Shown: positions 703 to 19,461 of the stretch, in pieces
How the letters are laid out: every line of letters begins with the position of its first letter
Numbering within the stretch: the first letter of the stretch is position 1
IMG/VR virus record: IMGVR_UViG_2671180427_000015
Span: 1 to 19,461 of that record
Reading direction: 5' to 3' (one strand)
Source: a virus
Lineage: Duplodnaviria > Heunggongvirae > Uroviricota > Caudoviricetes
DNA: 19,461 nt
The notes under the pieces: generated by a model
Seen by the model: the letters and a program-made list of their open reading frames with translations, nothing else
Told to the model about the DNA's origin: nothing
Databases searched by the model: none
Position numbers and translations under genes: made by a program

Positions 703-1461
703 TTAAATTCTGGTCCTTACAATATCAACCTGAAGATTCTTATCTTGTGCTGATTGATAAATCACAAACCTTTTACTACCTGCATTGAAAGAAGTAGACA
801 AAACCAGACAATTATCATAACGAGCAAGAACATAATACCAACCATCATTATAATTAATCATTTCATATTCTTTCTTAAACTGTGGTTTGTAATATCCTGT
901 CAGAAATGAAAAAAGCCAGAAATATGCCACAAAAGCAATCATCACAATCTCAAAAAAATGTTTTTTTATAAATGGCTTATCATAGAAGCATGATACCGAT
1001 AAAAATCGCCCATAAGATCTTATCGAAATTGTAACCGCCAGCGCAATCGCTGCTGACAGTAGCAAAAGAGGTACCTGAATCTTCTGTCTCAATATAGAAA
1101 ACTCAATAATTGCCGGCACAAACAATAATTCCACAGCAAAATAAAGGCGAAATACATTTAGCTCTTGCATAGAATGTTTTCTTTTCACTGCGAAAAAGAA
1201 TACAACACCAATACCCCAACCGATAAGAAATATAGCAATGACGATAACTGCAAAAAATAAACTTCTGGCAACATCATCAACACCTGCACCTACAATCCAC
1301 CATGGGAAGCCGTAGTAAAAAGAAGTACCCCATCCATAGAAATAAGCACTCCCCCATCCAAGGCATCCCATGTAGGCAATAAAAAGTGAAGAACTCCTGA
1401 GCAGCGCACCATCCTTCATAACCACCCCAATACAAGATGATAACATTGGCTTACAACTCAT
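703..1461 (-). CDS. Polytopic inner-membrane protein of unknown function (about 5 hydrophobic helices plus a ~60-aa soluble C-terminal tail); moron in the late operon
   Basis: 252-aa ORF in markedly AT-rich DNA just downstream of Q/pR' on the same strand; several long hydrophobic stretches (e.g. LFFAVIVIAIFLIGWGIGVVFFFAV, FFEIVMIAFVAYFWLFSFL). No clear Shine-Dalgarno at the first ATG; true start may be an internal Met (e.g. MKDGALL). Confidence 0.55.
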   Translation of the reverse strand: MSCKPMLSSCIGVVMKDGALLRSSSLFIAYMGCLGWGSAYFYGWGTSFYYGFPWWIVGAGVDDVARSLFFAVIVIAIFLIGWGIGVVFFFAVKRKHSMQELNVFRLYFAVELLFVPAIIEFSILRQKIQVPLLLLSAAIALAVTISIRSYGRFLSVSCFYDKPFIKKHFFEIVMIAFVAYFWLFSFLTGYYKPQFKKEYEMINYNDGWYYVLARYDNCLVLSTSFNAGSKRFVIYQSAQDKNLQVDIVRTRI

Positions 1462-4932: not shown

Positions 4933-4968
4933 CCTGCAGGCCTGTGATTAGCTCAGTGATGTAGATGG

Positions 4969-5259: not shown

Positions 5260-5957
5260 ACACTTGCTCCTTTCAGTCCGAACTTAGCTTTAATTTCTGC
5301 GATCTTCGCCAGCGCCTGAACACGATTTAGAGGTCTGCCGCCCATGACAGGAAGTTGTTTTATTGGTTCAGGTATCGTCTCACCACGGTTAATTCGCGCT
5401 GTCATACAGGTCAGTTCATCGGCAGCCTTGCGTCGTAATTCCGCGTCAGTCAGCGCATTGGCCCGCATGTTCTGGTACAGGTTGGTAACCAGCCAGTAGT
5501 GCGCGTTCGATTTCCACGGATAAGACTCTGCATCCGGATACAGGCCTCGCTTCCGGCAATACTCGTAAACCATATCAACCAGCTCGCTGACGTTTGGCAG
5601 TCCGGCGATAACGGATGCTTCTTCCCGGCACCATGCAACAAACTGCCCGGGTGATGGCAGAAATGGTCGATTCTGCCGACGGGCTACGCGCATTCCTGCG
5701 TTAACCTGTTCCATTGTGGTGATCCCGTTTTCCCGGAAAGCCAGAACCCACTGGCGGCGGATTTCGTTCAGTTCGTTCTGGTCACGGTTAGCCAGGCTCG
5801 CCGGGAAAGTTGCCAGTAACTGGCTGAACACACCGTTGATGATCTGCGCTACCTGCTGTACCTGAGGCTTTTCGTCGTACTGTTCCGGCATGTTGTTGGC
5901 GATCCGACGCATCTGCTCACGGTCAAAGTTAACCATCTGTGCGGCGATGTTTTTCAT
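5256..5957 (-). CDS. P: Replication protein P (DnaB helicase loader)
   Basis: 233-aa translation matches recalled lambda P; 4-nt overlap with O stop. Confidence 0.9.
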   Translation of the reverse strand: MKNIAAQMVNFDREQMRRIANNMPEQYDEKPQVQQVAQIINGVFSQLLATFPASLANRDQNELNEIRRQWVLAFRENGITTMEQVNAGMRVARRQNRPFLPSPGQFVAWCREEASVIAGLPNVSELVDMVYEYCRKRGLYPDAESYPWKSNAHYWLVTNLYQNMRANALTDAELRRKAADELTCMTARINRGETIPEPIKQLPVMGGRPLNRVQALAKIAEIKAKFGLKGASV

Positions 5958-6853
5958 AAATCCACCCCGTAAATCCAGTCAGTGTTTGTCAGGTCGAGTT
6001 TTGGTTTGCAGGCTGTCACGCCTGCCTGTTGCTTGTTACGGTTGATTTCGAGCTGGGTCCACTTGTCGCGGAGTTTGGCCGGGCTCAGCACGTTACCGGA
6101 CCAGAAGTTGTCCTGGCATGCCCAGCGGAACAGTACACACATGTCGCGATGGTTACGTCCGTCACGTTCACGCATCAGGCGGATATCGTTAGCCCACCCT
6201 GCAAAATTCGGTTTTCTGGCTGATGGCGCGATGGTCTTCACCATGTCAAACATCCACTCTGCGGCGGTCAGATCTTCTGCTGTCCCCCACCTGCTGCCGC
6301 TCTGAATTGCAGCATCTGGTTTCTCCACAGAAAGATCGTTTTCTGGCTGGTCAGAGGATTCGCCTGAATTCTCTGACGAATAATCTTTTCTTTTTTCTTT
6401 TGTAATAGTGTCTTTTGTGTCCCCCTGTTTTGAGGGATAGCAATCCCTCAATTTGAGGGATGTTTTATCCCTCGTTTTAGGGGATTTTCCCTCGTTTTGA
6501 GGGATACACCATTCTGAGATGTTTTTATTTGGTCCAAACATGCCGCCTTGCTGCTTGATAATATTCATTCTGACGAGTTCTAACTTGGCTTCATTGCACC
6601 GTTTGACGGGTAACTTTGTAATCTCGCTAAGTTGAGAATCGGTGATTCTGTCCATTGGTTTATTCCACCCATAGGTTTTACGCAGAATGGCAAGCAGCAC
6701 TTTAAACTGTCGCTTGGTCAGATCTGCGCCTGAATAAGCCTCAAGCAGCATATTTGATAGTCTGACGTAACCATCATCGAGATCTGCCACATTACGCTCC
6801 TGTTCGGCAAAGTTACCTCTGCCGAAGTTGAGTATTTTTGCTATATTTGTCAT
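5954..6853 (-). CDS. O: Replication initiator O
   Basis: 299-aa translation matches recalled lambda O; contains ori iterons internally. Confidence 0.9.
   Translation of the reverse strand: MTNIAKILNFGRGNFAEQERNVADLDDGYVRLSNMLLEAYSGADLTKRQFKVLLAILRKTYGWNKPMDRITDSQLSEITKLPVKRCNEAKLELVRMNIIKQQGGMFGPNKNISEWCIPQNEGKSPKTRDKTSLKLRDCYPSKQGDTKDTITKEKRKDYSSENSGESSDQPENDLSVEKPDAAIQSGSRWGTAEDLTAAEWMFDMVKTIAPSARKPNFAGWANDIRLMRERDGRNHRDMCVLFRWACQDNFWSGNVLSPAKLRDKWTQLEINRNKQQAGVTACKPKLDLTNTDWIYGVDL
6379..6506. repeat. Origin of replication (ori lambda type): four iterons plus adjacent AT-rich segment inside the O gene
   Basis: Four tandem ~20-bp units each containing an inverted TCCCTC...GAGGGA pair between about 6418 and 6506, flanked at 6379..6417 by a T-rich stretch (TCTTTTCTTTTTTCTTTTGTAATAG). 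Confidence 0.8.
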
Positions 6854-6885
6854 AATGACTCCTGTGGATTGATCCAGTAATTCCC

Positions 6886-7182
6886 TCAGAATTGCATATC
6901 AATTTGCTTAAAATCCTCGGTGGCAGCCGGGGATTTTTTCTTTGTGATTTCATCAAGCGCATACTTAAAAGCCCTGCTAATCGGACTGATGTCTGATGCC
7001 ATTCCGAAAGCACACAAGACCGAAGCAATAAATCTCCAGTCCGTTCTGCTTATCTTCGATTCATGACAGCCAATCATCTTTGCCAAACCGCGCTGTGTAA
7101 GCGTTGATAGGTTGATGAGTAAATCTGTTTCTGCGCGATCAACGTCACGCTGTGATAGTTTGCTGTAACTTGTTCGTTCCAT
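6886..7182 (-). CDS. CII-family lysogeny transcriptional activator (not the lambda allele)
   Basis: 98 aa; C-terminal ...KKKSPAATEDFKQIDMQF resembles lambda CII C-terminus (...KKRPAATERSEQIQMEF); located directly downstream of cro and nutR. Confidence 0.7.
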   Translation of the reverse strand: MERTSYSKLSQRDVDRAETDLLINLSTLTQRGLAKMIGCHESKISRTDWRFIASVLCAFGMASDISPISRAFKYALDEITKKKSPAATEDFKQIDMQF

Positions 7183-7268
7183 TTCTTAATATTTCCAATA
7201 GTGAATTGTTAGTTGACAGGTATGCGTGGAAACGCATATGGCCTTAGTTGGTCAGATATCTTGGGACT

Positions 7269-7313
7269 CGCTTTTCAGCGACGTAGGACGAATGTCCGTT
7301 GTTACAAAGAGCG
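7269..7313 (-). promoter_or_regulatory. nutR-like N-utilisation site (boxA plus boxB hairpin)
   Basis: Minus strand reads CGCTCTTTGTAACAA (boxA-like) then, 18 nt later, CGCTGAAAAGCG (short stem with GAAAA-containing loop), between cro and cII. Confidence 0.5.
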
Positions 7314-7323
7314 GCTCCGCTTA

Positions 7324-7539
7324 TTAAGCGGCTTTGTGTTCCGGCGGGAACACGTCATCAAGACTTACTTTTGCGCCTAACTTGTTTAGGCACGCAACAA
7401 GAGCACGGCATGTTTTAAGGTCTGGGAAGCGACGACCAGATTCCCAATGTCCGATAGCTCCCTGTGTGCATCCAACTGCTTTAGCAAGTTTCGTTTGAGA
7501 GATATTCAGTGACTCTCGATATTTTCGTAGGTTGCTCAT
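7324..7539 (-). CDS. cro: Cro-like HTH repressor (not the lambda allele)
   Basis: 71 aa from internal Met (MSNLRKYRESLNISQTKLAKAVGCTQGAIGHW...) with GGAGGA Shine-Dalgarno at 7543..7548; divergent from cI across an operator region. The 128-aa track ORF would overlap the operators and cI. Confidence 0.75.
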   Translation of the reverse strand: MSNLRKYRESLNISQTKLAKAVGCTQGAIGHWESGRRFPDLKTCRALVACLNKLGAKVSLDDVFPPEHKAA

Positions 7540-7570
7540 ATGTCCTCCGTAGTAACCACGAATAAAAAAA

Positions 7571-7639
7571 TACAATATGTACTCACCAAACACAAGTAAA
7601 AATACATATTGTGCATGGATGGTTCCAGTACAGAGCGTA
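7571..7639. promoter_or_regulatory. Right operator/promoter region (candidate OR sites with divergent pR and pRM)
   Basis: Three related 11-bp elements of form TAC-N5-GT(A/G): TACAATATGTA (7571..7581), TACATATTGTG (7603..7613), TACAGAGCGTA (7629..7639), lying between divergent cro and cI starts. Confidence 0.5.
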
Positions 7640-7656
7640 ATAATAAGGATATGAAA

Positions 7657-8310
7657 ATGAAATGGTATGAACTGGCTAGATCCAGAATGAAAGAGCTCGG
7701 CATAACTCAAGAGAAGTTAGCCGAAGAGCTAGGTATGACGCAGGGTGGAATTGGACACTGGTTGCGCGGATCTCGTCATCCATCTCTTAGTGATATTGGT
7801 GTGGTGTTTAAATACCTTGGTATTGATAACATATCATTCAACCACGACGGGACATTTTCACCTGTTGGCGAATACTCATCGGCCCCAGTTAAAAAACAAT
7901 ATGAGTACCCTGTTTTTTCTCATGTTCAGGCTGGGATGTTCTCTCCAGAACTCAGAACCTTTACCAAAGGCGATGCGGAGAGATTGGTAGGCACAACCAA
8001 AAAAGCCAGTGACTCTGCATTCTGGCTTGAGGTTGAAGGTAACTCAATGACCGCACCAACAGGTTCCAAACCTAGTTTTCCTGACGGGATGTTAATTCTG
8101 GTTGACCCTGAGCAAGCTGTTGAGCCCGGCGATTTCTGCATAGCCAGACTTGGTGGTGATGAATTTACCTTCAAGAAACTGATCAGGGATAGCGGTCAGG
8201 TGTTTCTACAGCCACTAAACCCACAATACCCAATGATCCCATGCAATGAGAGTTGTTCCGTTGTTGGGAAAGTTATCGCTAGTCAGTGGCCTGAAGAGAC
8301 GTTTGGGTGA
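7657..8310 (+). CDS. cI: CI prophage repressor, mosaic: non-lambda N-terminal HTH domain fused to lambda-type S24 (LexA-like) C-terminal domain
   Basis: C-terminal ~130 aa ([19 protein letters not shown]...EVEGNSM...FKKL...[12 protein letters not shown]) matches recalled lambda CI; N-terminal ~85 aa is unrelated to lambda CI. Start placed at ATG 7657 (AAGGA 7 nt upstream); the track ORF starts at 7609. Confidence 0.85.
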
Positions 8311-8380
8311 TGAAGGGCTAAATGTCTCCTAATAAAAACAGCAATCATTTGAAATTATTAATAATTATAGAGGTTTAGTC

Positions 8381-9379
8381 TTGGAAATCAGCACGGCGGT
8401 TATTCATTCCGAAGAAGATGCTTTGCGTTTTGTTGAGATGTACATCGCTGGGCAAGATCTTCCTGATGGAATATCATTTGAAGGGTGGCCTAACTTAACC
8501 TTCCGTCTTACTGGTGACAAATTTCATGGCAGTTTGACTCCTTCTGTCATGAAGGGTTTTGTTGAAATGCAGGCCCAAATAAACCGAGCTTATGCATTGT
8601 TAAAGTACGGAGTTCCTGACCCAAGAAAGCTTTCAAAAGAAGAGAAGGAAGCTATCGAAATTCAGGTGAATGTTGAGAATGGCTCGTCCTTGATAGAAGT
8701 TAATATGGATGGGTTCATGGGTGAGGTTATACAAACTGCGGTGAGTAAAGTGGGCCCTCAAGAGATCGTTATTACAGTTTTAGGGGTCGCTCTTATATGG
8801 GGCGGCGTCGTCCTATTCAAAAAATACCTAGAAGACCGCAAAGAGATTCGCATGGCAGAAGTAAAAAGCGAGTCTGAGCGTGAACACCTTGCGACCATGC
8901 GCTTCATGTCTGAGCAGGAAACAAAACGAAGTGAATTATTGACTCAGATTATTAGCGAAAAACCCAAGCTAGACAACATGGAAAGACTTGCTCATGACGC
9001 AAAAACCGACATAGTTAAATCATTTGTCAAGGCTGATACAGCTCAGATTGATGGCGTTGTATTGGATGCAGATCTATCCAAAACCCTCACTACAAATGCA
9101 AGGCGGAAATCAATGGAGATCCGCCTTGATGGAAATTATCGCATTGAAAAGGTTGACTCCACTGATCCAGAGAGCTTCAAAGTGCAAGTGAGAAATGTTG
9201 ATTCCGATCTAAGAATATCGTGCATAGTACAAGATGTTTTTCTCGACGCATCCGAGCATAAAAAAGCTCTTCAGCAAGCTGAGTGGGATAGAAAACCAGT
9301 TCATTTGTCAATCAACGCAAAAGAACTAGATGGTGAAATAAAGTCCGCGATAATACTTTATGTCAAAGAGATAACATAA
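8381..9379 (+). CDS. Immunity-region cargo protein of unknown function with one central hydrophobic helix (in the position lambda uses for rexA-rexB)
   Basis: 332-aa ORF with TTG start 7 nt after AGAGG; AT-rich; 70 nt downstream of cI on the same strand and followed by an intrinsic terminator; hydrophobic segment IVITVLGVALIWGGVVLF mid-protein; no similarity to RexA/RexB that I can recognise. Confidence 0.6.
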   Translation: MEISTAVIHSEEDALRFVEMYIAGQDLPDGISFEGWPNLTFRLTGDKFHGSLTPSVMKGFVEMQAQINRAYALLKYGVPDPRKLSKEEKEAIEIQVNVENGSSLIEVNMDGFMGEVIQTAVSKVGPQEIVITVLGVALIWGGVVLFKKYLEDRKEIRMAEVKSESEREHLATMRFMSEQETKRSELLTQIISEKPKLDNMERLAHDAKTDIVKSFVKADTAQIDGVVLDADLSKTLTTNARRKSMEIRLDGNYRIEKVDSTDPESFKVQVRNVDSDLRISCIVQDVFLDASEHKKALQQAEWDRKPVHLSINAKELDGEIKSAIILYVKEIT

Positions 9380-9386
9380 TCCTCAT

Positions 9387-9412
9387 CCCGGCCTCAGCGC
9401 CGGGTTTTCTTT
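9387..9412 (+). terminator. Intrinsic terminator ending the cI-cargo transcription unit
   Basis: CCCGGC-CTCAGC-GCCGGG hairpin followed by TTTTCTTT, 8 nt after the ORF stop. Confidence 0.6.
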
Positions 9413-9601
9413 GCCTCACGATCGCTTCACCTAAAAACACATAACCAATTGTATTTATTTGAAAATAAATAGATACAACTCACTAAACCACGCAATTCTG
9501 ATCTCTCCTTACATCGCCGAGGCAATACACCCATGCTAAAAAACAATACTATTAAATACAAAGCGTTGTAAAAAACCACCTCGTTTTAAGAACAAATTGT
9601 A

Positions 9602-9630
9602 TTGATAAAGCAAAATACATATCGTACTAT
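9602..9630 (+). promoter_or_regulatory. pL-like promoter with overlapping operator
   Basis: TTGATA -17 nt- TACTAT; the element TACATATCGTA (9616..9626) matches the OR-type TAC-N5-GTA sites and overlaps the spacer/-10. Confidence 0.45.
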
Positions 9631-9676
9631 TTAACCATCAGCAGGACGCTGGAAGCCAAACGGAACAAACTGGCAG

Positions 9677-9722
9677 GCTCTTTAAACAACGTCGAACTCT
9701 CGACTACGTGGCTGAAAAGCCA
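9677..9722 (+). promoter_or_regulatory. nutL-like site (boxA plus boxB hairpin)
   Basis: GCTCTTTAAACAA (boxA-like) followed 19 nt later by TGGCTGAAAAGCCA (4-bp stem, TGAAAA loop), upstream of N. Confidence 0.5.
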
Positions 9723-9819
9723 GATCACCCAACCACATGAGCTGTGGGATGCAATGCCGAAGCAACCGTCTAGGAGTAGCTTCGAGATTGCATCGCCAAA
9801 GTTTATTCGGGAGGAATCT

Positions 9820-10092
9820 ATGTCCAGAAAAACAGAATTTAAAGGCACCGCAGCTTCTCGCCGTAGAGCTCGTCGCGCAAATCTGCAAAGTCAGGAGGCG
9901 ATTAGCTCCGACAAACTACACAGGCCAACCCCCTCACGAGTGGTCTTGCAATGCAAACGCAAACCAGCAATGAGAGCAGAAGTAATAACACTGACAACGT
10001 TGACCAGAAAATATGAAGGCTCAACTTGTCTTCCAAATGTAGCTCTTTACGCGGCAGGCTACAGGAAATCAAAACAACTGACAGCAAGGTGA
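9820..10092 (+). CDS. N: N-like transcription antiterminator (arginine-rich motif; not lambda N)
   Basis: 90 aa from ATG 9820 (GGGAGG upstream); N-terminal arginine-rich motif GTAASRRRARRANLQ; first gene after pL/nutL. C-terminus resembles what I recall of the P22 gene 24 product, but that recollection is unverified. Confidence 0.7.
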   Translation: MSRKTEFKGTAASRRRARRANLQSQEAISSDKLHRPTPSRVVLQCKRKPAMRAEVITLTTLTRKYEGSTCLPNVALYAAGYRKSKQLTAR

Positions 10093-10150
10093 CTTGTGTT
10101 GATCGCCAGAAAATGAAATTAGGCATCAAACCACTTATTTGAGGTGATAT

Positions 10151-10237
10151 ATGGAAGAAGAATTTGAAGAGTTCGAAGAGCATCCTCAGGATGTGATGGA
10201 ACAATACCAGGACTATCCTTATGACTACGACTATTGA
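10151..10237 (+). CDS. Small acidic protein, lambda orf28-like
   Basis: 28 codons (MEEEFEEFEEHPQDVMEQYQDYPYDYDY) with GAGGTG Shine-Dalgarno; overlaps the ral start as lambda orf28 does. Confidence 0.5.
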   Translation: MEEEFEEFEEHPQDVMEQYQDYPYDYDY

Positions 10238-10445
10238 TAAAAATCAATGGTGTGGACAATTCAAGCGATGCAATGGATGCAAGCTGCAATCGGAATGCAT
10301 GGTTAAGCCTGAAGAAATGTTTCCTGTAATGGAAGATGGGAAATATGTCGATAAATGGGCAATACGAACGACGGCAATGATTGCCAGAGAACTTGGTAAA
10401 CAGAACAACAAGGCTGCCTGGTGGTGGCCTTTATTTTTGGCATAA
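10221..10445 (+). CDS. ral: Ral restriction-alleviation protein
   Basis: First 66 aa match recalled lambda Ral (MTTTIDKNQWCGQFKRCNGCKLQSECM...); this ORF reads on for 8 more codons (WWWPLFLA) before the stop. Confidence 0.8.
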   Translation: MTTTIDKNQWCGQFKRCNGCKLQSECMVKPEEMFPVMEDGKYVDKWAIRTTAMIARELGKQNNKAAWWWPLFLA

Positions 10446-10603
10446 ACAACAGAATAAACACTGCACTGTGTATTCATTCCAACAAGTGAATACACGGAGC
10501 AATGTCGCTCGTAACCAAACAGGAGCCGACTTGTTCTGATTATTGGAAATCTTCTTTGCCCTCCAATATGAGGGCGATTTTTTATCTGTGAGGATATGAA
10601 CAG

Positions 10604-10972
10604 ATGTCAAACATCAAAAAATACATCATTGATTACGACTGGAAAGCATCAATAGAAATTGAAATCGACCATGACGTAATGACAGAGGAAAAACTTCACC
10701 AGATTAATAATTTCTGGTCAGACTCTGAATACCGACTCAATAAACACGGCTCTGTATTAAATGCTGTATTAATCATGCTGGCGCAACATGCTCTGCTTAT
10801 AGCAATTTCAAGCGACTTAAATGCATATGGTGTTGTGTGTGAGTTCGACTGGAATGATGGAAATGGTCAGGAAGGATGGCCTCCAATGGATGGTAGTGAA
10901 GGAATAAGAATTACCGATATCGATACATCAGAAATATTTGATTCAGATGATATGACTATCAAGGCCGCCTGA
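10604..10972 (+). CDS. ea10: Ea10 (Ssb)-like early protein
   Basis: 122-aa translation matches recalled lambda Ea10 in size, position (between ral and cIII) and sequence. Confidence 0.7.
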   Translation: MSNIKKYIIDYDWKASIEIEIDHDVMTEEKLHQINNFWSDSEYRLNKHGSVLNAVLIMLAQHALLIAISSDLNAYGVVCEFDWNDGNGQEGWPPMDGSEGIRITDIDTSEIFDSDDMTIKAA

Positions 10973-11044
10973 GCGCGGCGTTACCGCATACCAATTACGC
11001 TTCACTCGAGGCGTTTTTCGTTATGTATAAATAAGGAGCACACC

Positions 11045-11209
11045 ATGCAATATGCCATTGCAGGGTGGCCTGTTGCTGGCTGCCCTTCCGAATCTTTACT
11101 TGAACGAATCACCCGTAAATTACGTGACGGATGGAAACGCCTTATCGACATACTTAATCAGCCAGGAGTCCCAAAAAATGGATCAAACAATTATGGCTAT
11201 CCAGACTAA
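11045..11209 (+). CDS. cIII: CIII (FtsH/HflB protease inhibitor)
   Basis: 54-aa translation [54 protein letters not shown] with AAGGAG Shine-Dalgarno; not in the ORF track (<60 aa). Confidence 0.85.
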   Translation: MQYAIAGWPVAGCPSESLLERITRKLRDGWKRLIDILNQPGVPKNGSNNYGYPD

Positions 11210-11321
11210 ATTCACTATCGCCACTTTTATTGGCGATGAAAAGATGTTTCGTGAGGCCGTCGACGCTTATAAAAAATGGATATTAATACTGAAACTGAGA
11301 TCAAGCAAAAGCATTCACTAA
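11178..11321 (+). CDS. kil: Kil (host cell-division inhibitor)
   Basis: 47-aa translation [47 protein letters not shown], the in-frame 3' part of the 89-aa track ORF; overlaps the cIII 3' end as in lambda. Confidence 0.8.
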
Positions 11322-11396
11322 CCCCCTTTCCTGTTTTCCTAATCAGCCTGGCATTTCGCGGGCGATATTTTCACAGCCATTTTCAGGAGTTCAGCC

Positions 11397-11693
11397 ATGA
11401 ACGCTTATTACATTCAGGATCGTCTTGAGGCTCAGAGCTGGGCGCGTCACTACCAGCAGATCGCCCGTGAAGAGAAAGAGGCAGAACTGGCAGACGACAT
11501 GGAAAAAGGCCTGCCCCAGCACCTGTTTGAATCGCTATGCATCGATCATTTACAACGCCACGGGGCCAGCAAAAAAGCCATTACCCGTGCGTTTGATGAC
11601 GATGTTGAGTTTCAGGAGCGCATGGCAGAACACATCCGGTACATAGTTGAAACCATTGCTCACCATCAGGCTGATATTGATTCAGAGGTATAA
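11397..11693 (+). CDS. gam: Gam (RecBCD inhibitor)
   Basis: 98-aa translation matches recalled lambda GamS; CAGGAG Shine-Dalgarno. Confidence 0.9.
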
Positions 11694-11698
11694 AACGG

Positions 11699-12484
11699 AT
11701 GAGTACAGCACTCGCAACGCTGGCAGGGAAGCTGGCTGAACGTGTCGGCATGGATTCTGTCGACCCACAGGAACTGATCACCACTCTTCGCCAGACGGCA
11801 TTTAAAGGTGATGCCAGCGATGCGCAGTTCATCGCATTGCTGATCGTCGCCAACCAGTACGGCCTTAATCCGTGGACGAAAGAAATTTACGCCTTCCCTG
11901 ATAAGCAGAACGGCATTGTTCCGGTGGTGGGCGTTGATGGCTGGTCCCGCATCATCAATGAAAACCAGCAGTTTGATGGCATGGACTTTGAGCAGGACAA
12001 TGAATCCTGTACATGCCGGATTTACCGCAAGGACCGCAATCATCCGATCTGCGTTACCGAGTGGATGGATGAATGCCGCCGCGAACCATTCAAAACCCGC
12101 GAAAGCAGAGAAATCACGGGGCCGTGGCAGTCGCATCCCAAACGGATGTTACGGCATAAAGCCATGATTCAGTGTGCCCGTCTCGCCTTCGGATTTGCTG
12201 GTATCTATGACAAGGATGAAGCCGAGCGCATTGTCGAAAATACCGCATACACTGCAGAACGTCAGCCGGAACGCGACATCACTCCGGTTAACGATGAAAC
12301 CATGCAGGAGATTAACACTCTGCTGATTGCCCTGGATAAAACATGGGATGACGACTTATTGCCGCTCTGTTCCCAGATATTTCGCCGCGACATTCGCGCA
12401 TCGTCAGAACTGACACAGGCCGAAGCAGTGAAAGCTCTTGGATTCCTGAAACAGAAAGCCACTGAGCAGAAGGTGGCTGCATGA
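11699..12484 (+). CDS. bet: Bet (Red-beta single-strand annealing protein)
   Basis: 261-aa translation matches recalled lambda Bet throughout. Confidence 0.95.
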
Positions 12485-13161
12485 CACCGGACATTATCCT
12501 GCAGCGTACCGGAATCGACGTGAGAGCTGTCGAACAGGGGGATGATGCGTGGCACAAATTACGGCTCGGCGTCATCACCGCTTCAGAAGTTCACAATGTG
12601 ATAGCAAAGCCCCGCTCAGGAAAGAAGTGGCCTGACATGAAAATGTCCTACTTCCACACCCTGCTGGCTGAGGTTTGCACCGGTGTGGCTCCGGAAGTTA
12701 ATGCTAAGGCGCTGGCCTGGGGAAAACAGTACGAGAACGACGCCAGAGCCCTGTTTGAGTTCACTTCCGGCGTGAATGTTACTGAATCCCCGATCATCTA
12801 TCGCGACGAAAGTATGCGCACCGCCTGCTCTCCCGATGGTTTATGCAGTGACGGCAACGGCCTTGAACTGAAATGCCCGTTTACCTCCCGGGATTTCATG
12901 AAATTCCGGCTCGGTGGTTTCGAGGCCATAAAGTCGGCTTACATGGCCCAGGTGCAGTACAGCATGTGGGTAACGCGAAAAGATGCCTGGTACTTTGCCA
13001 ACTATGACCCACGAATGAAGCGTGAAGGCCTGCATTATGTCGTGGTTGAGCGGGATGAAAATTACATGGCGAGTTTTGACGAGATGGTGCCGGAGTTCAT
13101 CGAAAAAATGGACGAGGCACTGGCTGAAATTGGTTTTGCATTTGGGGAGCAATGGCGATGA
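12481..13161 (+). CDS. exo: Exo (Red-alpha 5'-3' exonuclease)
   Basis: 226-aa translation matches recalled lambda Exo; 4-nt overlap with bet. Confidence 0.95.
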
Positions 13162-13340
13162 AGCATCCTCACGATAATATCCGGGTAGGCACGATCACTT
13201 TCGTCTACTCCGTTACAAAGCGAGGCTGGGTATTTCCCGGCCTTTCTGTTATCCGAAATCCCCTGAAAGCACAGCGGCTGGCTGAGGAGATAAATAATAA
13301 ACGAGGGGCTGTATGCACAAAGCATCTCCTGTTGAGTTAA
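13158..13340 (+). CDS. orf60a: orf60a-like protein
   Basis: 60 aa from the second in-frame ATG (ATGA overlap with exo stop); matches recalled lambda orf60a. Confidence 0.6.
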
Positions 13341-13504
13341 GAACGAGCATTGAGATGGCACATAGCCTTGCTCAAATTGGAGTCAGGTTTGTGCCAATAC
13401 CAGTAGAAACAGACGAAGAATTTCATACGTTAGCCACATCCCTTTCACAAAAGCTGGAAATGATGGTGGCGAAAGCAGAAGCAGATGAGAGAGACCAGGT
13501 ATGA
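13313..13504 (+). CDS. orf63: orf63-like protein
   Basis: 63-aa ORF in the lambda orf63 position; sequence consistent with recollection. Confidence 0.6.
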   Translation: MHKASPVELRTSIEMAHSLAQIGVRFVPIPVETDEEFHTLATSLSQKLEMMVAKAEADERDQV

Positions 13505-13580
13505 CAACCACGGAATGCATTTTTCTGGCAGCGGGCTTCATATTCTGTGTGCTTATGCTTGCCGACATGGGACTTGTTCA

Positions 13581-13796
13581 ATGACACCTCAGCAGGAAAA
13601 CGCCCTTCGCAGCATTGCCCGTCAGGCTAATTCTGAAATCAAAAAAGCCAGACAGCAGTTTCCGGATAAAAACGTCGATGACATTTGCCGTAGCGTACTG
13701 AAGAAGCACCGCGAAACGGTAACGCTGATGGGATTCACACCGACTCATTTAAGCCTGGCAATCGGCATGTTAAACGGCGTCTTTAAGGAACGATGA
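13581..13796 (+). CDS. orf61: orf61-like protein
   Basis: 71 aa from MTPQQENALRSIARQANSEIKKARQQF...; placed at the internal ATG, which overlaps (ATGA) the stop of a 27-codon upstream ORF. Confidence 0.55.
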   Translation: MTPQQENALRSIARQANSEIKKARQQFPDKNVDDICRSVLKKHRETVTLMGFTPTHLSLAIGMLNGVFKER

Positions 13797-13817
13797 ACAT
13801 GAAAAGCAAAATCATCA

Positions 13818-13842
13818 GGGAGCTACAGGCTCCTTTTTTATT
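13818..13842 (+). terminator. Intrinsic terminator (tL-type) after orf61-like
   Basis: GGGAGC-TACAG-GCTCC(U) hairpin followed by TTTTTTATT. Confidence 0.55.
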
Positions 13843-13894
13843 ATTCGCATTCACCCTCAAGCGTATTAACCAACAATTCAGGGATTAATGGAAG

Positions 13895-14116
13895 ATGGCA
13901 GACATCATTGATTCAGCATCAGAAATTGAAGAATTACAGCGCAACACAGCAATAAAAATGCGCCGCCTGAACCACCAGGCTATATCTGCCACTCATTGTT
14001 GTGAGTGTGGCGATCCGATAGATGAACGAAGACGCCTGGTCGTTCAGGGTTGTCGGACTTGTGCAAGTTGCCAGGAGGATCTGGAGCTTATCAGTAAACA
14101 GAGAGGTTCGAAGTGA
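13895..14116 (+). CDS. TraR/DksA-family C4 zinc-finger protein
   Basis: 73 aa with two CxxC pairs (CCECG...CRTCASC) in the spacing typical of the TraR/DksA zinc finger. Confidence 0.65.
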   Translation: MADIIDSASEIEELQRNTAIKMRRLNHQAISATHCCECGDPIDERRRLVVQGCRTCASCQEDLELISKQRGSK

Positions 14117-14520
14117 GCGAAATTAACTCTCAGGCACTGCGTGAAGCGGCAGAGAAAGCCGGTGAAGATAAGTGGCAGGCTAAAAAAATAAATGGTGATT
14201 TTTTCGTTATTCGTCACGGTAGTTATACAAGACAGCATGGCTACACATCGTATCAACCCATTGCGGAGATTGATTGTAAGCCAGTCCGGGATTTTGTTGC
14301 CAAGGCTAATCCGGCTACCGTGCTGGAATTACTGGATGAACTGGAAGCAGCAAAAAAGCGCATTGCAGAACTGGAAGCGCGGGAAATACTGCTCCCGGAA
14401 CGTAGCAGCATGCTTCATCGAACAGATTTTCACGATGATTACCAAACGGTAATGGCATACAAAGTTTCTGAAGTCATCGATGCAATCCGCGCTACTGGCA
14501 TTCGCATCAAAGGAGAGTGA
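14113..14520 (+). CDS. Ea22-like protein (shorter than lambda Ea22)
   Basis: GTG start in a GTGA overlap with the upstream stop, GAGAGG Shine-Dalgarno; N-terminus MSEINSQALREAAEKA... and C-terminus ...GIRIKGE agree with recalled lambda Ea22 termini; central coiled-coil-like LELLDELEAAKKRIAELEARE. Confidence 0.6.
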   Translation: MSEINSQALREAAEKAGEDKWQAKKINGDFFVIRHGSYTRQHGYTSYQPIAEIDCKPVRDFVAKANPATVLELLDELEAAKKRIAELEAREILLPERSSMLHRTDFHDDYQTVMAYKVSEVIDAIRATGIRIKGE

Positions 14521-14521
14521 G

Positions 14522-15277
14522 ATGATTCACTACCACGGTGGGCCTATTACTCCTGATACGTGCGCAATGAGAGCATGGAAAGGGCGACATGCGTTTATCA
14601 GTTTTGCGCATTCAGGCCAGATCAATCTCGCGGCTGAATACTGTCAGTCGTTCGCGCTGGACAACGGTGCATTCACCGCCTGGAAAGCAGCTGGCAAAAA
14701 CAAAATCGACTGGAGCGATTACTACGAGTTTGTTGCTCGCTGGAAGAATCACCCAGGATTCGATTTTGCCATTATCCCGGATATTATTGATGGCGGAGAG
14801 GAGGAAAATGATGCGCTTCTGAATGAGTGGCCTCACGGAAAACTAGCTGGCGTTCCAGTGTGGCACATGAATGAAAGTGACGCGCGATTTATTCATTTGT
14901 GCAATGAGTTTCCGCGAGTGGCTATCGGTAGTTGTGGCGACTATGACGTAAAGCGCCCAACTCTTGCGGTAGCCAGAATGAAAGACCTGATTCGTCACAT
15001 TGTTGATGGGCATGGTCAGCCGGTTACGAAACTACATGGATTGCGCATGTTAAATCCGCTGATATTCACAAAATTACCCTTAGCCAGCGCAGATAGTACG
15101 AACGTCGCTCGAAACATCGGTATTGATAAAGCCTGGTCTGGGGCTTATGCACCTGCAAGTAAAGAGACACGCGCAGCATTAATGGTAGAACGGATTGAGG
15201 CACACAATAGCCCTGGTTCTCTTGCGTATTGTGAACAACGCGACCGCTTTGAAATGCAATTGCAACTAGCAGTTTAA
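14522..15277 (+). CDS. Candidate queuine tRNA-ribosyltransferase-fold protein (DpdA-like 7-deazaguanine DNA transglycosylase candidate)
   Basis: 251 aa from ATG 14522 (AGGAG 6 nt upstream). Five collinear segments resemble recalled E. coli Tgt motifs: LDNGAF (TDSGGF), FAIIPD (MIFDEC), VAIGS (YAVGG), LHGLRML (YLMGVG), ADSTNVARN (FDCVMPTRNARN). No zinc-binding C-terminal subdomain. Functional call unverified. Confidence 0.5.
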   Translation: MIHYHGGPITPDTCAMRAWKGRHAFISFAHSGQINLAAEYCQSFALDNGAFTAWKAAGKNKIDWSDYYEFVARWKNHPGFDFAIIPDIIDGGEEENDALLNEWPHGKLAGVPVWHMNESDARFIHLCNEFPRVAIGSCGDYDVKRPTLAVARMKDLIRHIVDGHGQPVTKLHGLRMLNPLIFTKLPLASADSTNVARNIGIDKAWSGAYAPASKETRAALMVERIEAHNSPGSLAYCEQRDRFEMQLQLAV

Positions 15278-15287
15278 GGACTAACAA

Positions 15288-16085
15288 ATGACCACTATTA
15301 CCAAAGAACGTATTGAATTGTTCATTAAAAATCCGCTTGAAAACGGGCTTACTCGTGGCGAACAAATGGAACTGGCACGAATTGCACTGGCATCACTGGA
15401 ACGCGAACTGATTCGCCACGAGCATGCCAAATGGTCTGACTCCACATTTGGCTGCGTTGGCCCCATTGGTCCACTGAAACACCTCTCAAAAGAGGCTCTG
15501 GAAGCCGCAGCCGAACCAGACGATCTCAGCTAGTGGGCTGATATGCATTTCCTGTTGTGGGATGCACAGCGCCGTGCTGGCATCAGCGATGCTGAAATTA
15601 CCGCTGCTATGGAAGATAAATTGAAGATCAACATGGAGCGCCAGTGGCCTGAACCAAAAGATGGTGAGCCTCGCTTGCACATTAAAGAACCCGGCAACTC
15701 TCCGGTAATTCCGGATGGTTTATCCACGGTATGCGCTGAGGCTTATCAGGTTGTAGGAGTTATGGCAGATGCGCTTGGTGTATTCGGTGATGCAGCAGTA
15801 CAGAAAGTTCTGGATAACCTGTCACAGCAAAAACTTGTTCACAGAGATGTGCTGCCGTTCTCGCTTCCGGTGACTCCGGATGGTTGGATAAGCTGTAGTG
15901 AGCGAATGCCGAAAGAAACGGGTGACATTATTGTTGTTTCGGATGGCATTGTAATGTCCGGGATTTCTTATTCTCGTCGTGACGGGTTCTATATAGCCGC
16001 ATTGGAGTACGACGACGATGAGCCAATTGGCGGTGTAACCCACTGGATGCCTCTACCAGAACCGCCTCGATTAAAGGAGCTATAA
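15288..16085 (+). pseudogene. MazG-like NTP pyrophosphohydrolase / DUF551 reading frame interrupted by an in-frame amber codon (TAG 15531..15533)
   Basis: Track ORFs 15288..15533 and 15543..16085 are in the same frame, separated by TAG plus three sense codons; a MazG-like helix pattern (...EALEAAAEPDDLS * WADMHFLLWDAQRRAGISDAEITAAMEDKLKINMERQW) spans the stop; C-terminal ...HWMPLPEPP is DUF551-like. No convincing Shine-Dalgarno before the downstream ATG. Confidence 0.5.
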
Positions 16086-16199
16086 TAGTGAACTATTATA
16101 TCTATTTGTATTAAAAGAGTTTTTATAAAATAAATCTCCCAAAGCATGTAAAAACACTGTTAATCTTAACGTGTGTGAAACGTGAAGAGAGGTGTTGAA

Positions 16200-16481
16200 A
16201 TGAGCATTCATGATTTGTGTGAAGATCAAGAGCAATGGGCTATGCAGACCCTTATGGGATCAGGAGTTCTTGCAAGGTGCAGAATCCATAACGATGTAAT
16301 TTTAGACAGCGGAAATGATGCTTCTTCTGCTTATAAATTAGGAACTTACCTATATCAAAAAGATAATAGCTGCAACTTATTCAATACTCTTACTGAAGCC
16401 CGCGACGCAATAAAGGATGCATATGAATCGTATTGTGGGATCGATGATTGCCCACAATGCTCAAAATACATTGACGATTAA
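16200..16481 (+). CDS. Ea8.5-like protein
   Basis: 93 aa from ATG 16200 (AGAGAGG upstream), the same length as lambda Ea8.5 and the same position relative to xis; shares the Cys/His pattern and C-terminal ...CPxC.K.IDD with recalled Ea8.5; AT-rich. Confidence 0.6.
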   Translation: MSIHDLCEDQEQWAMQTLMGSGVLARCRIHNDVILDSGNDASSAYKLGTYLYQKDNSCNLFNTLTEARDAIKDAYESYCGIDDCPQCSKYIDD

Positions 16482-16501
16482 TAATATGAACAAGTAACTA
16501 T

Positions 16502-16557
16502 CCTCGCACTCGCGGGGATTTCTTTTATCTGAACTCGCTACGGCGAGTTTTGTTTTA
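16502..16557 (+). terminator. Two tandem intrinsic terminators after the Ea8.5-like gene
   Basis: CCTCGC-ACTC-GCGGGG followed by ATTTCTTTT (16502..16526), and AACTCGC-TACG-GCGAGTT followed by TTGTTTT (16532..16557). Confidence 0.5.
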
Positions 16558-16569
16558 TGGCGATGATAA

Positions 16570-16737
16570 ATGCACTTCCGAGTTACAGGTGAATGGAATG
16601 GAGAACCATTCAACAGAGTTATCGAAGCCGAGAACATCAGCGACTGCTATGACCACTGGATGCTGTGGGCGCAGATAGCACATGCAGACGTAACCAATAT
16701 TCGAATTGAAGAACTGAAAGAACACCAAGCCGCCTGA
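16570..16737 (+). CDS. Small hypothetical protein (55 aa) between two terminators upstream of xis
   Basis: ATG 16570 to TGA 16735..16737, translation MHFRVTGEWNGEPFNRVIEAENISDCYDHWMLWAQIAHADVTNIRIEELKEHQAA; weak ribosome-binding site; stop codon lies in the loop of the following terminator. Confidence 0.4.
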   Translation: MHFRVTGEWNGEPFNRVIEAENISDCYDHWMLWAQIAHADVTNIRIEELKEHQAA

Positions 16738-16752
16738 TGGCGGTTTTTTCTT
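16729..16752 (+). terminator. Intrinsic terminator immediately upstream of xis
   Basis: GCCGCC-TGAT-GGCGG(T) hairpin followed by TTTTTTCTT. Confidence 0.55.
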
Positions 16753-16776
16753 GCGTGTAATTGCGGAGACTTTGCG

Positions 16777-16995
16777 ATGTACTTGACACTTCAGGAGTGG
16801 AACGCTCGCCAGCGACGCCCAAGAAGCCTTGAAACAGTTCGTCGATGGGTGCGCGAATGCAGGATATTCCCTCCTCCGGTTAAGGATGGAAGAGAATATC
16901 TGTTCCACGAATCAGCGGTAAAGGTTGACTTAAATCGACCAGTAACAGGTAGCCTTTTGAAGAGGATCAGAAATGGGAAGAAGGCGAAGTCATGA
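16777..16995 (+). CDS. xis: Excisionase Xis
   Basis: 72-aa translation matches recalled lambda Xis; overlaps the int start. Confidence 0.95.
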   Translation: MYLTLQEWNARQRRPRSLETVRRWVRECRIFPPPVKDGREYLFHESAVKVDLNRPVTGSLLKRIRNGKKAKS

Positions 16996-18043
16996 GCGCC
17001 GGGATTTACCCCCTAACCTTTATATAAGAAACAATGGATATTACTGCTACAGGGACCCAAGGACGGGTAAAGAGTTTGGATTAGGCAGAGACAGGCGAAT
17101 CGCAATCACTGAAGCTATACAGGCCAACATTGAGTTATTTTCAGGACACAAACACAAGCCTCTGACAGCGAGAATCAACAGTGATAATTCCGTTACGTTA
17201 CATTCATGGCTTGATCGCTACGAAAAAATCCTGGCCAGCAGAGGAATCAAGCAGAAGACACTCATAAATTACATGAGCAAAATTAAAGCAATAAGGAGGG
17301 GTCTGCCTGATGCTCCACTTGAAGACATCACCACAAAAGAAATTGCGGCAATGCTCAATGGATACATAGACGAGGGCAAGGCGGCGTCAGCCAAGTTAAT
17401 CAGATCAACACTGAGCGATGCATTCCGAGAGGCAATAGCTGAAGGCCATATAACAACAAACCCTGTCGCTGCCACTCGCGCAGCAAAATCAGAGGTAAGG
17501 AGATCAAGACTTACGGCTGACGAATACCTGAAAATTTATCAAGCAGCAGAATCATCACCATGTTGGCTCAGACTTGCAATGGAACTGGCTGTTGTTACCG
17601 GGCAACGAGTTGGTGATTTATGCGAAATGAAGTGGTCTGATATCGTAGATGGATATCTTTATGTCGAGCAAAGCAAAACAGGCGTAAAAATTGCCATCCC
17701 AACAACATTGCATGTTGATGCTCTCGGGATATCAATGAAGGAAACACTTGATAAATGCAAAGAGATTCTTGGCGGAGAAACCATAATTGCATCTACTCGT
17801 CGTGAACCGCTTTCATCCGGCACAGTATCAAGGTATTTTATGCGCGCACGAAAAGCATCAGGTCTTTCCTTCGAAGGGGATCCGCCTACCTTTCACGAGT
17901 TGCGCAGTTTGTCTGCAAGACTCTATGAGAAGCAGATAAGCGATAAGTTTGCTCAACATCTTCTCGGGCATAAGTCGGACACCATGGCATCACAGTATCG
18001 TGATGACAGAGGCAGGGAGTGGGACAAAATTGAAATCAAATAA
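16973..18043 (+). CDS. int: Tyrosine integrase Int
   Basis: 356-aa translation matches recalled lambda Int, including the C-terminal catalytic region ...HELRSLSARLYEKQISDKFAQHLLGHKSDTMASQYRDDRG... Confidence 0.95.
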   Translation: MGRRRSHERRDLPPNLYIRNNGYYCYRDPRTGKEFGLGRDRRIAITEAIQANIELFSGHKHKPLTARINSDNSVTLHSWLDRYEKILASRGIKQKTLINYMSKIKAIRRGLPDAPLEDITTKEIAAMLNGYIDEGKAASAKLIRSTLSDAFREAIAEGHITTNPVAATRAAKSEVRRSRLTADEYLKIYQAAESSPCWLRLAMELAVVTGQRVGDLCEMKWSDIVDGYLYVEQSKTGVKIAIPTTLHVDALGISMKETLDKCKEILGGETIIASTRREPLSSGTVSRYFMRARKASGLSFEGDPPTFHELRSLSARLYEKQISDKFAQHLLGHKSDTMASQYRDDRGREWDKIEIK

Positions 18044-18131
18044 TGATTTTATTTTGACTGATAGTGACCTGTTCGTTGCAACAAATTGATAAGCAATGCT
18101 TTTTTATAATGCCAACTTAGTATAAAAAAGC
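18044..18131. other. attL: lambda P' arm plus 15-bp core (core TTAGTATAAAAAAGC at 18117..18131 as read on the + strand)
   Basis: Sequence 18051..18131 is the reverse complement of the recalled lambda attP P' arm and core (GCTTTTTTATACTAA), with an arm-type Int site ATAGTGACC; sequence immediately right of the core (AGGCTTCAA) matches the bacterial attB flank rather than the phage P arm. Confidence 0.85.
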
Positions 18132-18177
18132 AGGCTTCAACGGATTCATTTTTCTATTTCATAGCCCGGAGCAACCT

Positions 18178-19461
18178 GTGAACACATTTTCAGTTTCCCG
18201 TCTGGCGCTGGCATTGGCTTTTGGCGTGACGCTGACCGCCTGTAGCTCAACACCACCCGATCAACGTCCTTCTGATCAAACCGCGCCTGGTACCTCTTCT
18301 CGCCCGATTCTGTCGGCAAAAGAAGCGCAGAATTTCGATGCTCAACACTATTTTGCATCCCTGACACCAGGTGCTGCAGCGTGGAATCCTTCCCCGATTA
18401 CCCTGCCTGCGCAACCTGACTTTGTTGTCGGCCCGGCGGGTACTCAAGGTGTAACGCATACCACGATTCAGGCGGCGGTAGATGCGGCAATTATCAAGCG
18501 TACCAACAAGCGCCAGTATATTGCCGTGATGCCAGGTGAGTATCAGGGAACGGTATATGTTCCTGCCGCTCCGGGTGGAATTACTCTGTACGGTACAGGT
18601 GAAAAACCGATTGATGTGAAGATTGGGCTTTCCCTTGATGGGGGCATGAGCCCTGCCGACTGGCGTCACGACGTCAACCCGCGCGGCAAATATATGCCAG
18701 GTAAACCAGCGTGGTATATGTACGATAGCTGCCAGAGCAAACGCAGCAACAGTATCGGTGTTCTCTGTTCAGCGGTCTTCTGGTCACAAAACAATGGCCT
18801 GCAACTGCAAAACCTGACCATCGAAAACACGCTGGGCGATAGCGTAGATGCGGGTAACCATCCGGCGGTGGCACTGCGTACTGATGGTGACCAGGTACAG
18901 ATTAACAACGTGAACATTCTCGGTCGTCAGAACACCTTCTTTGTCACCAACAGCGGTGTGCAGAACCGTCTGGAAACGAATCGTCAGCCGCGTACGCTGG
19001 TGACCAACAGCTACATTGAAGGGGATGTGGATATCGTTTCTGGTCGCGGCGCAGTGGTGTTCGATAACACCGAATTCCGCGTGGTGAACTCACGTACTCA
19101 GCAAGAAGCGTATGTGTTTGCACCGGCAACGCTGTCCAACATTTACTACGGTTTCCTCGCTGTAAACAGCCGTTTCAATGCTTCCGGTGATGGCGTGGCG
19201 CAACTGGGCCGCTCGCTGGATGTTGATGCCAATACCAACGGTCAGGTGGTGATCCGTGATAGCGCCATCAACGAAGGTTTTAACACGGCTAAACCGTGGG
19301 CCGATGCGGTGATCTCTAATCGTCCGTTTGCGGGTAATACCGGCAGCGTAGATGATAACGACGAAATACAGCGCAATCTGAATGACACTAACTACAACCG
19401 CATGTGGGAATACAATAACCGCGGCGTGGGTAGTAAAGTGGTTGCAGAGGCGAAGAAGTAA
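18178..19461 (+). CDS. ybhC: Host lipoprotein YbhC (pectinesterase-family outer-membrane lipoprotein) flanking attB-lambda
   Basis: 427-aa ORF with GTG start, signal peptide and lipobox (LTAC); matches recalled E. coli YbhC, the gene adjacent to the lambda attachment site; higher GC than the prophage cargo. Confidence 0.85.
   Translation: MNTFSVSRLALALAFGVTLTACSSTPPDQRPSDQTAPGTSSRPILSAKEAQNFDAQHYFASLTPGAAAWNPSPITLPAQPDFVVGPAGTQGVTHTTIQAAVDAAIIKRTNKRQYIAVMPGEYQGTVYVPAAPGGITLYGTGEKPIDVKIGLSLDGGMSPADWRHDVNPRGKYMPGKPAWYMYDSCQSKRSNSIGVLCSAVFWSQNNGLQLQNLTIENTLGDSVDAGNHPAVALRTDGDQVQINNVNILGRQNTFFVTNSGVQNRLETNRQPRTLVTNSYIEGDVDIVSGRGAVVFDNTEFRVVNSRTQQEAYVFAPATLSNIYYGFLAVNSRFNASGDGVAQLGRSLDVDANTNGQVVIRDSAINEGFNTAKPWADAVISNRPFAGNTGSVDDNDEIQRNLNDTNYNRMWEYNNRGVGSKVVAEAKK

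Follow-up and report, generated by a model that had tools for sequence, protein, structure and literature searches.

Here we describe a 27-codon open reading frame (mini-ORF) at positions 13501..13584, plus strand, of the window, by which we mean the whole 19,461-nucleotide (nt) stretch that was analysed (IMG/VR virus record IMGVR_UViG_2671180427_000015, Caudoviricetes, positions 1 to 19,461). From comparison of related sequences we propose, with a probability of roughly 0.7, that the mini-ORF is a genuine, translationally coupled gene for a 27-residue hydrophobic peptide, and that the standard annotation of lambda and Stx (Shiga toxin) phages has mis-assigned it to the N-terminus of orf61. 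Such a gene would belong to the early leftward (pL) operon in lambda-type phages, where it would stand in the exo-xis region with orf63 before it and the true Orf61 after it. The three frames concerned are as follows.

13501..13584, plus strand: mini-ORF, 27 codons and TGA, product MTTTECIFLAAGFIFCVLMLADMGLVQ, from the sequence and the list of open reading frames; equals lambda complement(30925..31008)
13313..13504, plus strand: orf63 (DUF1382, 63 residues), Pfam PF07131, E = 7.7e-31; equals lambda orf63 31005..31196c
13581..13796, plus strand: Orf61 core gene, 71 residues, MTPQQENALRS...; its ATG overlaps the mini-ORF stop, phrog_303 covers the core, and this is the start called by the Prokaryotic Genome Annotation Pipeline (PGAP; WP_000188870.1)

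Substitution pattern across the mini-ORF

The window is a lambdoid prophage arm with the gene order bet, exo, orf60a, orf63, a gap, orf61, orf73/TraR, ea22-like genes, xis and int, and its positions 13100-14000 match phage lambda 30508-31409 (reverse strand) at 98.3% identity (902 nt of lambda against 901 nt of the window). The 3' end of orf63 reads CAG GTA TGA, and its stop (13502-13504) shares TG with the mini-ORF ATG (13501-13503) to form an ATGA junction. At the other end the mini-ORF TGA (13582-13584) overlaps the ATG of the Orf61 core (13581-13583) in a second ATGA; in the 14 loci where the core starts with GTG this overlap is retained as GTGA. The preliminary description had given the coordinates and both overlaps exactly, as the sequence and the list of open reading frames confirm, and the tight two-sided coupling it described is real at the level of sequence, the upstream ATGA being kept over four different upstream sequences. 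The chance of an open 26-codon frame is ~0.25 by itself, and ~0.006 if the frame must also link two genes through an ATGA on either side. Upstream of 13581 there is no usable Shine-Dalgarno site, only a weak GGGA 10 nt before the start.

A second frame (hereafter the long frame) runs open through this DNA as well, at 13485..13796; it encodes 103 residues, or 93 residues from the ATG at 13515. The peptide MHFSGSGLHILCAYACR belongs to this long frame, and MTPQQENALR is the N-terminus of the Orf61 core. With the stretch open in two frames, the list of open reading frames leaves the coding frame undecided, and comparative data must therefore decide.

We projected 233 related loci (viral contigs, genomes and Escherichia coli records) on the window and classified each variant allele across the region 13504-13580, where the expected synonymous fraction is 0.23. 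Counting alleles present in at least 3 loci, changes fell at first, second and third codon positions of the mini-ORF frame in the proportions 1/0/7, with 7 synonymous and 1 non-synonymous (P = 2e-4); with alleles in at least 2 loci the proportions were 2/2/10, with 10 synonymous and 4 non-synonymous (P = 1.6e-4). At the threshold of 3 loci, which applies to all further counts, the long frame annotated as Orf61 gave codon positions 7/1/0 and 0 synonymous to 8 non-synonymous alleles, and the third plus-strand frame gave 1 synonymous to 7 non-synonymous. Among all six frames the mini-ORF frame came top, the runner-up at 5:3 being an antisense frame that shares its wobble positions. Neighbouring genes served as controls: the Orf61 core gave positions 0/2/15 (14 synonymous to 3 non-synonymous), orf63 gave 5/6/6 (6 to 11) and orf60a gave 7/8/16 (17 to 14). 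The synonymous excess of the mini-ORF frame is comparable to that of the Orf61 core and stronger than that of orf63.

Consistent with this, the most divergent E. coli allele (CRE444) differs at 7 of 84 positions, 5 of them third positions and all of these synonymous, and the part of the mini-ORF retained in Escherichia sp. E1V33 carries 3 synonymous changes and 1 conservative A-to-V change. Loss of the frame in homologous regions had been named in the preliminary description as what would refute its reading; when this was examined, an intact ATG...TGA with 27 codons was found in 213 of the 216 fetched copies that cover the mini-ORF, the exceptions being one ATA start and two error-ridden assemblies. 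The 7:1 synonymous excess, with positions 1/0/7, also supports the earlier suggestion that the mini-ORF is translated rather than accidental. Together, the aligned alleles show that the mini-ORF frame bears the synonymous-site signature expected of purifying selection.

The start of Orf61 and the surroundings of the mini-ORF

The DNA of the mini-ORF lies within the orf61 of lambda and the Orf61 of Shiga toxin (Stx) phages as these are annotated (vb_24B_7c, L0070; PMC6213356, PMC8614690), and the first 32 codons of annotated Orf61 in lambda, or the first 22 in Stx phages, are the mini-ORF in another reading frame. Two ATG codons of the long frame have served as starts.

13485..13487, plus strand: ATG used as the 'orf61' start in the lambda reference (lambda orf61 30839..31024c); start unsupported
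13515..13517, plus strand: ATG of the 93-residue 'Orf61' (933W, Stx2-86, Phi24B-type and many records); the substitution pattern gives no support

The lambda-reference start at 13485 overlaps orf63 by 20 nt, and its ATG is ACG in 34 of 91 loci. No Shine-Dalgarno site precedes 13515. In 78 of 233 loci, phage 434 among them, a G>T allele at 13512 leaves the mini-ORF peptide unchanged and creates a long-frame TGA at 13512-13514. PGAP, like the CPT annotation of phage 434, starts Orf61 at 13581 (71 residues), which leaves 13505-13580 as an unannotated gap of 76 nt. Published modelling of Phi24B Orf61 in its 93-residue version predicted a fold that takes in residues 24-93 only, and lambda Orf61 appeared truncated and unfolded (PMC8614690); the folded segment, residues 24-93 of Phi24B Orf61, is the 71-residue core. 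The annotated N-terminal extension is represented by phrog_26061 together with the first 22 positions of phrog_303, and across it start and frame are not conserved under purifying selection.

The preliminary description had raised the alternative that the orf61-like gene begins further upstream. This is contradicted by the long-frame count of 0:8, by the ACG in 34 of 91 loci and by the TGA in 78 of 233, and also by phages that lack the mini-ORF. In these the arrangement is exo, DUF1317, a 250-residue gene and then Orf61 (loci L122, L159, L179 and L239), and Orf61 has a GAGG site of its own 5 nt upstream and begins at the equivalent Met (MTIEHNNALRS...). Because the mini-ORF-free arrangement starts Orf61 at the Met that matches 13581, we take this to be the true N-terminus. 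The evidence places the Orf61 start at 13581 and, on these alignments, would assign the stretch upstream to a separate 27-residue product in another frame.

The mini-ORF-free arrangement also bears on a neighbouring gene. There the Orf61 core directly follows the 250-residue gene, whose C-terminus resembles that of a 265-residue ORF at window 14480-15277, with the shared pattern ...STNVARNIGIDK.W.G.YAPASKETR...; in the window this ORF lies downstream of the ea22-like genes, and the same gene would thus stand on either side of orf61 in different phages. As regards the core itself, the labels proposed for it disagree. Its segment GFTPTHLSLAIGMLNG (residues 42-65 of 71) has weak PDB matches to ankyrin repeats, the best at E = 3e-4 (an ankyrin chain); PGAP often labels it 'cell division protein ZapA', for which the Pfam match has E = 0.014 and 16 bits, under the 23.8-bit cut-off; and in the literature it has been modelled as homeodomain-like.

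On its upstream side the mini-ORF occurs in mosaic contexts. Four distinct upstream sequences meet at its ATG, all with ATGA: two variants of the orf63 3' end and two Dam-type methyltransferase genes. The diverged orf63 3' end, CTTGCATGA, retains ATGA, as does the upstream gene of Escherichia sp. E1V33, GGAGGCGGCATGA. A Dam-type N6-adenine methyltransferase gene takes the place of orf63 in 27 viral loci and in ~10% of sampled E. coli copies; in this context the homologous sequence runs from 13501 exactly, the stop of the methyltransferase gene and the mini-ORF ATG again share an ATGA, and a strong GGGAGG stands 4 nt upstream of that ATG. Since Orf61 also occurs without it, the comparison shows the mini-ORF behaving as a separable, movable module with its left boundary exactly at the ATG, rather than as an obligatory leader.

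The predicted peptide and rival explanations

The product MTTTECIFLAAGFIFCVLMLADMGLVQ has a grand average of hydropathy (GRAVY) of 1.62. Among stop-free stretches of 27 residues, taken from every one of the window's six frames, this ranks in the top 0.9%, and of the window's 182 ORFs of 20-40 residues no more than 2, the mini-ORF included, are that hydrophobic. The other one, on the minus strand at 762-848 (MMVGIMFLLVMIIVWFCLLLSMQVVKGL, GRAVY 2.32), lies within a 252-residue ORF, 703..1461, on the same strand. The layout of the mini-ORF peptide is a polar MTTTE head, an unbroken hydrophobic core of 16 residues and then DMGLVQ.

13516..13563, plus strand: hydrophobic core C6-A21, CIFLAAGFIFCVLMLA, predicted membrane-helix segment, between E5 and D22

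On the summed Hessa scale the 16-residue core scores -3.4, and windows of 19-20 residues score ~0 kcal/mol owing to D22. Profile searches returned no significant match for the peptide: the best were phrog_21538 at E = 0.68 and TIGR02507 at E = 0.034 (below cut-off), with none in Pfam or PADLOC.

E. coli makes a class of small single-helix membrane proteins, described by Hemm, Storz and colleagues, that includes KdpF (29 residues), AcrZ (49 residues) and MgtS (31 residues). Like these, the mini-ORF product is short (27 residues), has one hydrophobic stretch with polar ends and has been missed by pipelines for its length; like KdpF in particular, it lacks basic residues and is encoded inside an operon directly before the next gene. 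Unlike KdpF, AcrZ and MgtS, it is phage-borne, has no sequence similarity to any of them and has a hydrophobic run of only 16 residues, its helix being predicted. This class is cited in the lambda study discussed below (PMC4195576, refs 46-47).

We propose that ribosomes ending orf63, or the Dam-type methyltransferase gene, would start again at the ATGA overlap to translate the 27-residue peptide, and that those ending the mini-ORF would reinitiate at the second ATGA on the 71-codon Orf61 core. As the core has no usable Shine-Dalgarno site and would be reached via the mini-ORF, the mini-ORF may therefore also set Orf61 output. By analogy, the peptide would most likely form one short inner-membrane helix of the KdpF/AcrZ kind, and early in the lytic cycle it may act on some component of the membrane, of host or phage origin. 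ATGA stop-start coupling is common in phage operons. The mini-ORF resembles other genes coupled in this way by termination and reinitiation in that both its junctions are ATGA and the gene downstream has no ribosome-binding site of its own; unlike ordinary coupled pairs, it is a complete gene, though a tiny one, enclosed by such a junction on each side, an arrangement that could work as a relay.

Two other kinds of short ORF were considered and found no support. An RNA fold of 13470-13630 was less stable than 199 of 200 shuffles (z = +2.0), and no terminator-like site was found in 13480-13600; the poor fold and the missing terminator speak against a leader peptide or attenuating upstream ORF. 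Type I toxin peptides (Hok, TisB, ShoB, Ibs and DinQ) are encoded by stand-alone genes, are repressed by antisense RNA and usually contain basic residues. The mini-ORF product is like them in being small, hydrophobic and of similar length, and unlike them in lacking basic residues and being embedded in the pL operon among coupled genes. A search of Rfam gave no match at E <= 1 for the mini-ORF stretch; with no antisense family there, no minus-strand promoter-like site within ~270 nt and an operon-embedded position, the mini-ORF does not fit the pattern of a Type I toxin-antitoxin peptide.

Several observations weigh against a functional membrane peptide. The 233 loci are related, partly redundant and non-independent, and the selection signal amounts to about 8-15 polymorphic sites. 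An antisense ORF at 13383..13568 (minus strand, 61 residues) has wobble positions that coincide with those of the mini-ORF frame, and it is this ORF that scores 5:3. In the orf63-type context an AGG stands 1 nt from the mini-ORF ATG, which does not make a good Shine-Dalgarno site, and translation of the mini-ORF there would therefore depend on reinitiation. According to a review, ribosome profiling of lambda added only ORFs of 7 and 31 residues in the exo-xis region (PMC8614690). The peptide contains no Lys or Arg, its sole charges being E5 and D22, and so lacks the basic flank associated with the positive-inside rule; with a hydrophobic run as short as 16 residues, membrane spanning is plausible, not assured. 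The family is narrow, being found in Escherichia phages only and at no less than 91.7% DNA identity. Finally, in Escherichia sp. E1V33 (NZ_RHJI01000010.1, L007 1935-2010) a 14-nt deletion destroys the mini-ORF, which is therefore dispensable there. The deletion joins the mini-ORF ATG, with its GGAGG site, to the long frame into Orf61, with the predicted product MTISSGGLHILCAYACRHGACSMTHQPENAL...; its junction is absent from all 5,426 complete E. coli genomes.

These points have to be set beside four other accounts of the stretch. In one, the mini-ORF is translated merely so that ribosomes pass from orf63 on to the start of the Orf61 core, and the peptide is functionless and degraded. Such a bridge would fit the ATGA at both ends, the want of a usable Shine-Dalgarno site before 13581, the GAGG that the core has of its own where the mini-ORF is absent, and a peptide without a recognisable family. 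It needs an open frame alone, yet amino-acid-changing variants are depleted (7:1 and 10:4); the hydrophobicity is unusual, in the top 0.9%; and lambda keeps the mini-ORF intact though its Orf61 core is frameshifted (see below). We consider this account unlikely. If instead the published annotation is right, the stretch is the N-terminus of a longer Orf61, of 103 residues from 13485 or 93 from 13515, and the mini-ORF is accidental. The long frame is open and is annotated so in lambda, 933W, Stx2-86 and many other phages, phrog_303 and phrog_26061 include the extension, the 93-residue product is on 997 contigs, and in E1V33 the mini-ORF ATG is fused to it. That fusion, however, arose when 14 nt were deleted, and substitutions on either side of it in E1V33 still keep to the mini-ORF frame. 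The 0:8 ratio, with polymorphism concentrated at long-frame first codon positions, speaks against the longer protein, as do the loss of the 13485 ATG in 34 of 91 loci, the TGA at 13512-13514 in 78 of 233 and the lack of a Shine-Dalgarno site before 13515. PGAP begins Orf61 at 13581, as does the CPT annotation of phage 434; the mini-ORF-free arrangement has no extension; and published modelling puts residues 1-23 outside the fold. We therefore hold the longer Orf61 to be improbable.

The selection signal might also belong to a gene on the other strand, the 61-residue antisense ORF introduced above, which exists and reads in the second-best frame (5:3). Its ATG (13566-13568), however, is destroyed by 13566 C>T in 9 loci, the methyltransferase context gives it a different C-terminal half (44 against 61 residues), and it does not extend to 13572 and 13581, two of the sites with third-position polymorphism. 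The sole nearby minus-strand promoter-like site is ~270 nt away, and the gene would overlap orf63 antisense, out of wobble register, so that this origin of the signal seems barely credible. There is also the view that the stretch is a non-coding spacer, whose open frame and substitution pattern arose by chance with the help of a few related haplotypes. Few of the polymorphic sites are independent, the loci being related and partly redundant, and an open 26-codon frame alone has P ~0.25; the bridging by two ATGA junctions jointly has P ~0.006, however, the synonymous excess P ~2e-4 and the hydrophobicity lies in the top 0.9%, and in independent contexts the mosaic junctions fall exactly at the mini-ORF ATG. 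We rate a chance origin as very improbable, and a coupled gene for a 27-residue peptide remains our preferred reading.

A second short frame lies nearby. A 31-codon ORF, MNMKSKIIRELQAPFLLFAFTLKRINQQFRD, at window 13793-13888 has an ATG that overlaps the stop of the Orf61 core, again as ATGA. A terminator-like hairpin (13817-13835) lies within it, and 7 nt separate its end from orf73. Its polymorphism does not look like that of a coding sequence, with 4 synonymous and 6 non-synonymous changes (codon positions 1/5/4). Judged by length, it may be the 31-residue 'orf2313' that a review credits to ribosome profiling of lambda.

Distribution of the mini-ORF and the genetics of orf61

Of 5426 complete E. 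coli genomes, 3142 contain the 84-nt mini-ORF sequence, with 4255 copies in all, and so do 176 phage records, always with at least 91.7% DNA identity. No mini-ORF feature was present among 90 spread-sampled RefSeq rows, nor in any of the phage or RefSeq records examined. By exact-sequence look-up the 27-residue peptide is a 'hypothetical protein' on 981 contigs (BE964_26140, ETI79567.1 and others; UniRef A0A0A2SGE8_ECOLX), and the 93-residue long-frame product is on 997. The 27-residue product is thus independently called by some pipelines in GenBank whole-genome shotgun entries and in UniProt. The 90%-identity cluster that contains it also holds two unrelated proteins of 428 residues (P0082, P0083), which looks like a clustering artefact.

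A tblastn search of 50,697 phage records with the peptide found nothing beyond the lambda/Stx group, and a scan of species-representative genomes placed the locus in Escherichia only, setting aside contaminant lambda DNA. Apparent relatives at 51-80% from a search with the 71-residue protein proved to be artefacts: error-ridden assemblies (L106, L107), a copy truncated by an insertion sequence (L108), a truncated prophage remnant (L109) and an IS66 insertion (L238). DNA identical to laboratory lambda, carrying the A7 allele described below, was found as contigs, several of ~48 kb, in unrelated assemblies (loci L008-L021), among them Shewanella, Bradyrhizobium, Paenibacillus, Kitasatospora and Oceanobacillus; these contigs are most likely contamination by a sequencing control or ligation marker.

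Two further positions bear on the published genetics of orf61.

13552, plus strand: C deleted in the published lambda frameshift allele pGAWorf61_mut (primer CTTCATATTCTGTGTG*TTATGCTTGCCGACAT with the C deleted; PMC4195576, Table 1)
13641..13646, plus strand: A6 run in the Orf61 core, from alignment; lambda has A7

When this primer is mapped on the window, the deleted C falls at 13552, where codon 18 of the mini-ORF begins and which precedes the start of the Orf61 core. The lambda frameshift allele is reported to delay phage development after induction (PMC4195576). In the delta-orf61 phages of lambda and Phi24B the whole annotated ORF was replaced, and therefore the 27-residue peptide was lost too. 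The run at 13641..13646 is A6 in the window, phage 434 and Stx phages, whereas all laboratory derivatives of lambda have A7 (lambda 30867 region). With A7 the Orf61 core that starts at 13581 is frameshifted to 29 residues, MTPQQENALRSIARQANSEIKKSQTAVSG, and the mini-ORF is intact; lambda's own orf61 looks like a pseudogene. We infer that the effects ascribed to Orf61 are confounded by the accompanying loss of the 27-residue peptide, most clearly in lambda.

Because the lambda core is frameshifted to 29 residues, the frameshift allele falls in codon 18 of the mini-ORF and the deletions remove it, it is conceivable, if doubtful, that the 27-residue peptide rather than Orf61 is the effector behind the pro-lytic 'orf61' phenotype, in lambda at least. 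The exo-xis papers examined, up to 2024, describe five exo-xis proteins and do not mention the mini-ORF, and the peptide string gave no match in a literature search or in the Sakai small-gene supplements. A genetic handle is available, as 13503 G>A abolishes the mini-ORF start (ATG to ATA) and preserves the orf63 stop (TGA to TAA).

Lambda is the reference phage, and its exo-xis region is under active study for the induction of Shiga-toxin prophages. The mini-ORF reveals no new mechanism; what it would do is correct the map of a model phage and reopen the published genetics of orf61. If it is real, the textbook orf61 coordinates are wrong both in lambda (30839..31024) and in the 93-residue Stx version, the true product being the 71-residue core, and each published 'orf61' mutant also hits the peptide, so that the phenotypes need re-assignment. 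A gene would then have gone unannotated in 3142 of 5426 complete E. coli genomes, and a phage example would join the class of very small membrane peptides. Were the peptide also the effector, it would be an unrecognised phage membrane factor that sways the choice between lysis and lysogeny, present in more than half of complete E. coli genomes, including those with Shiga-toxin prophages.

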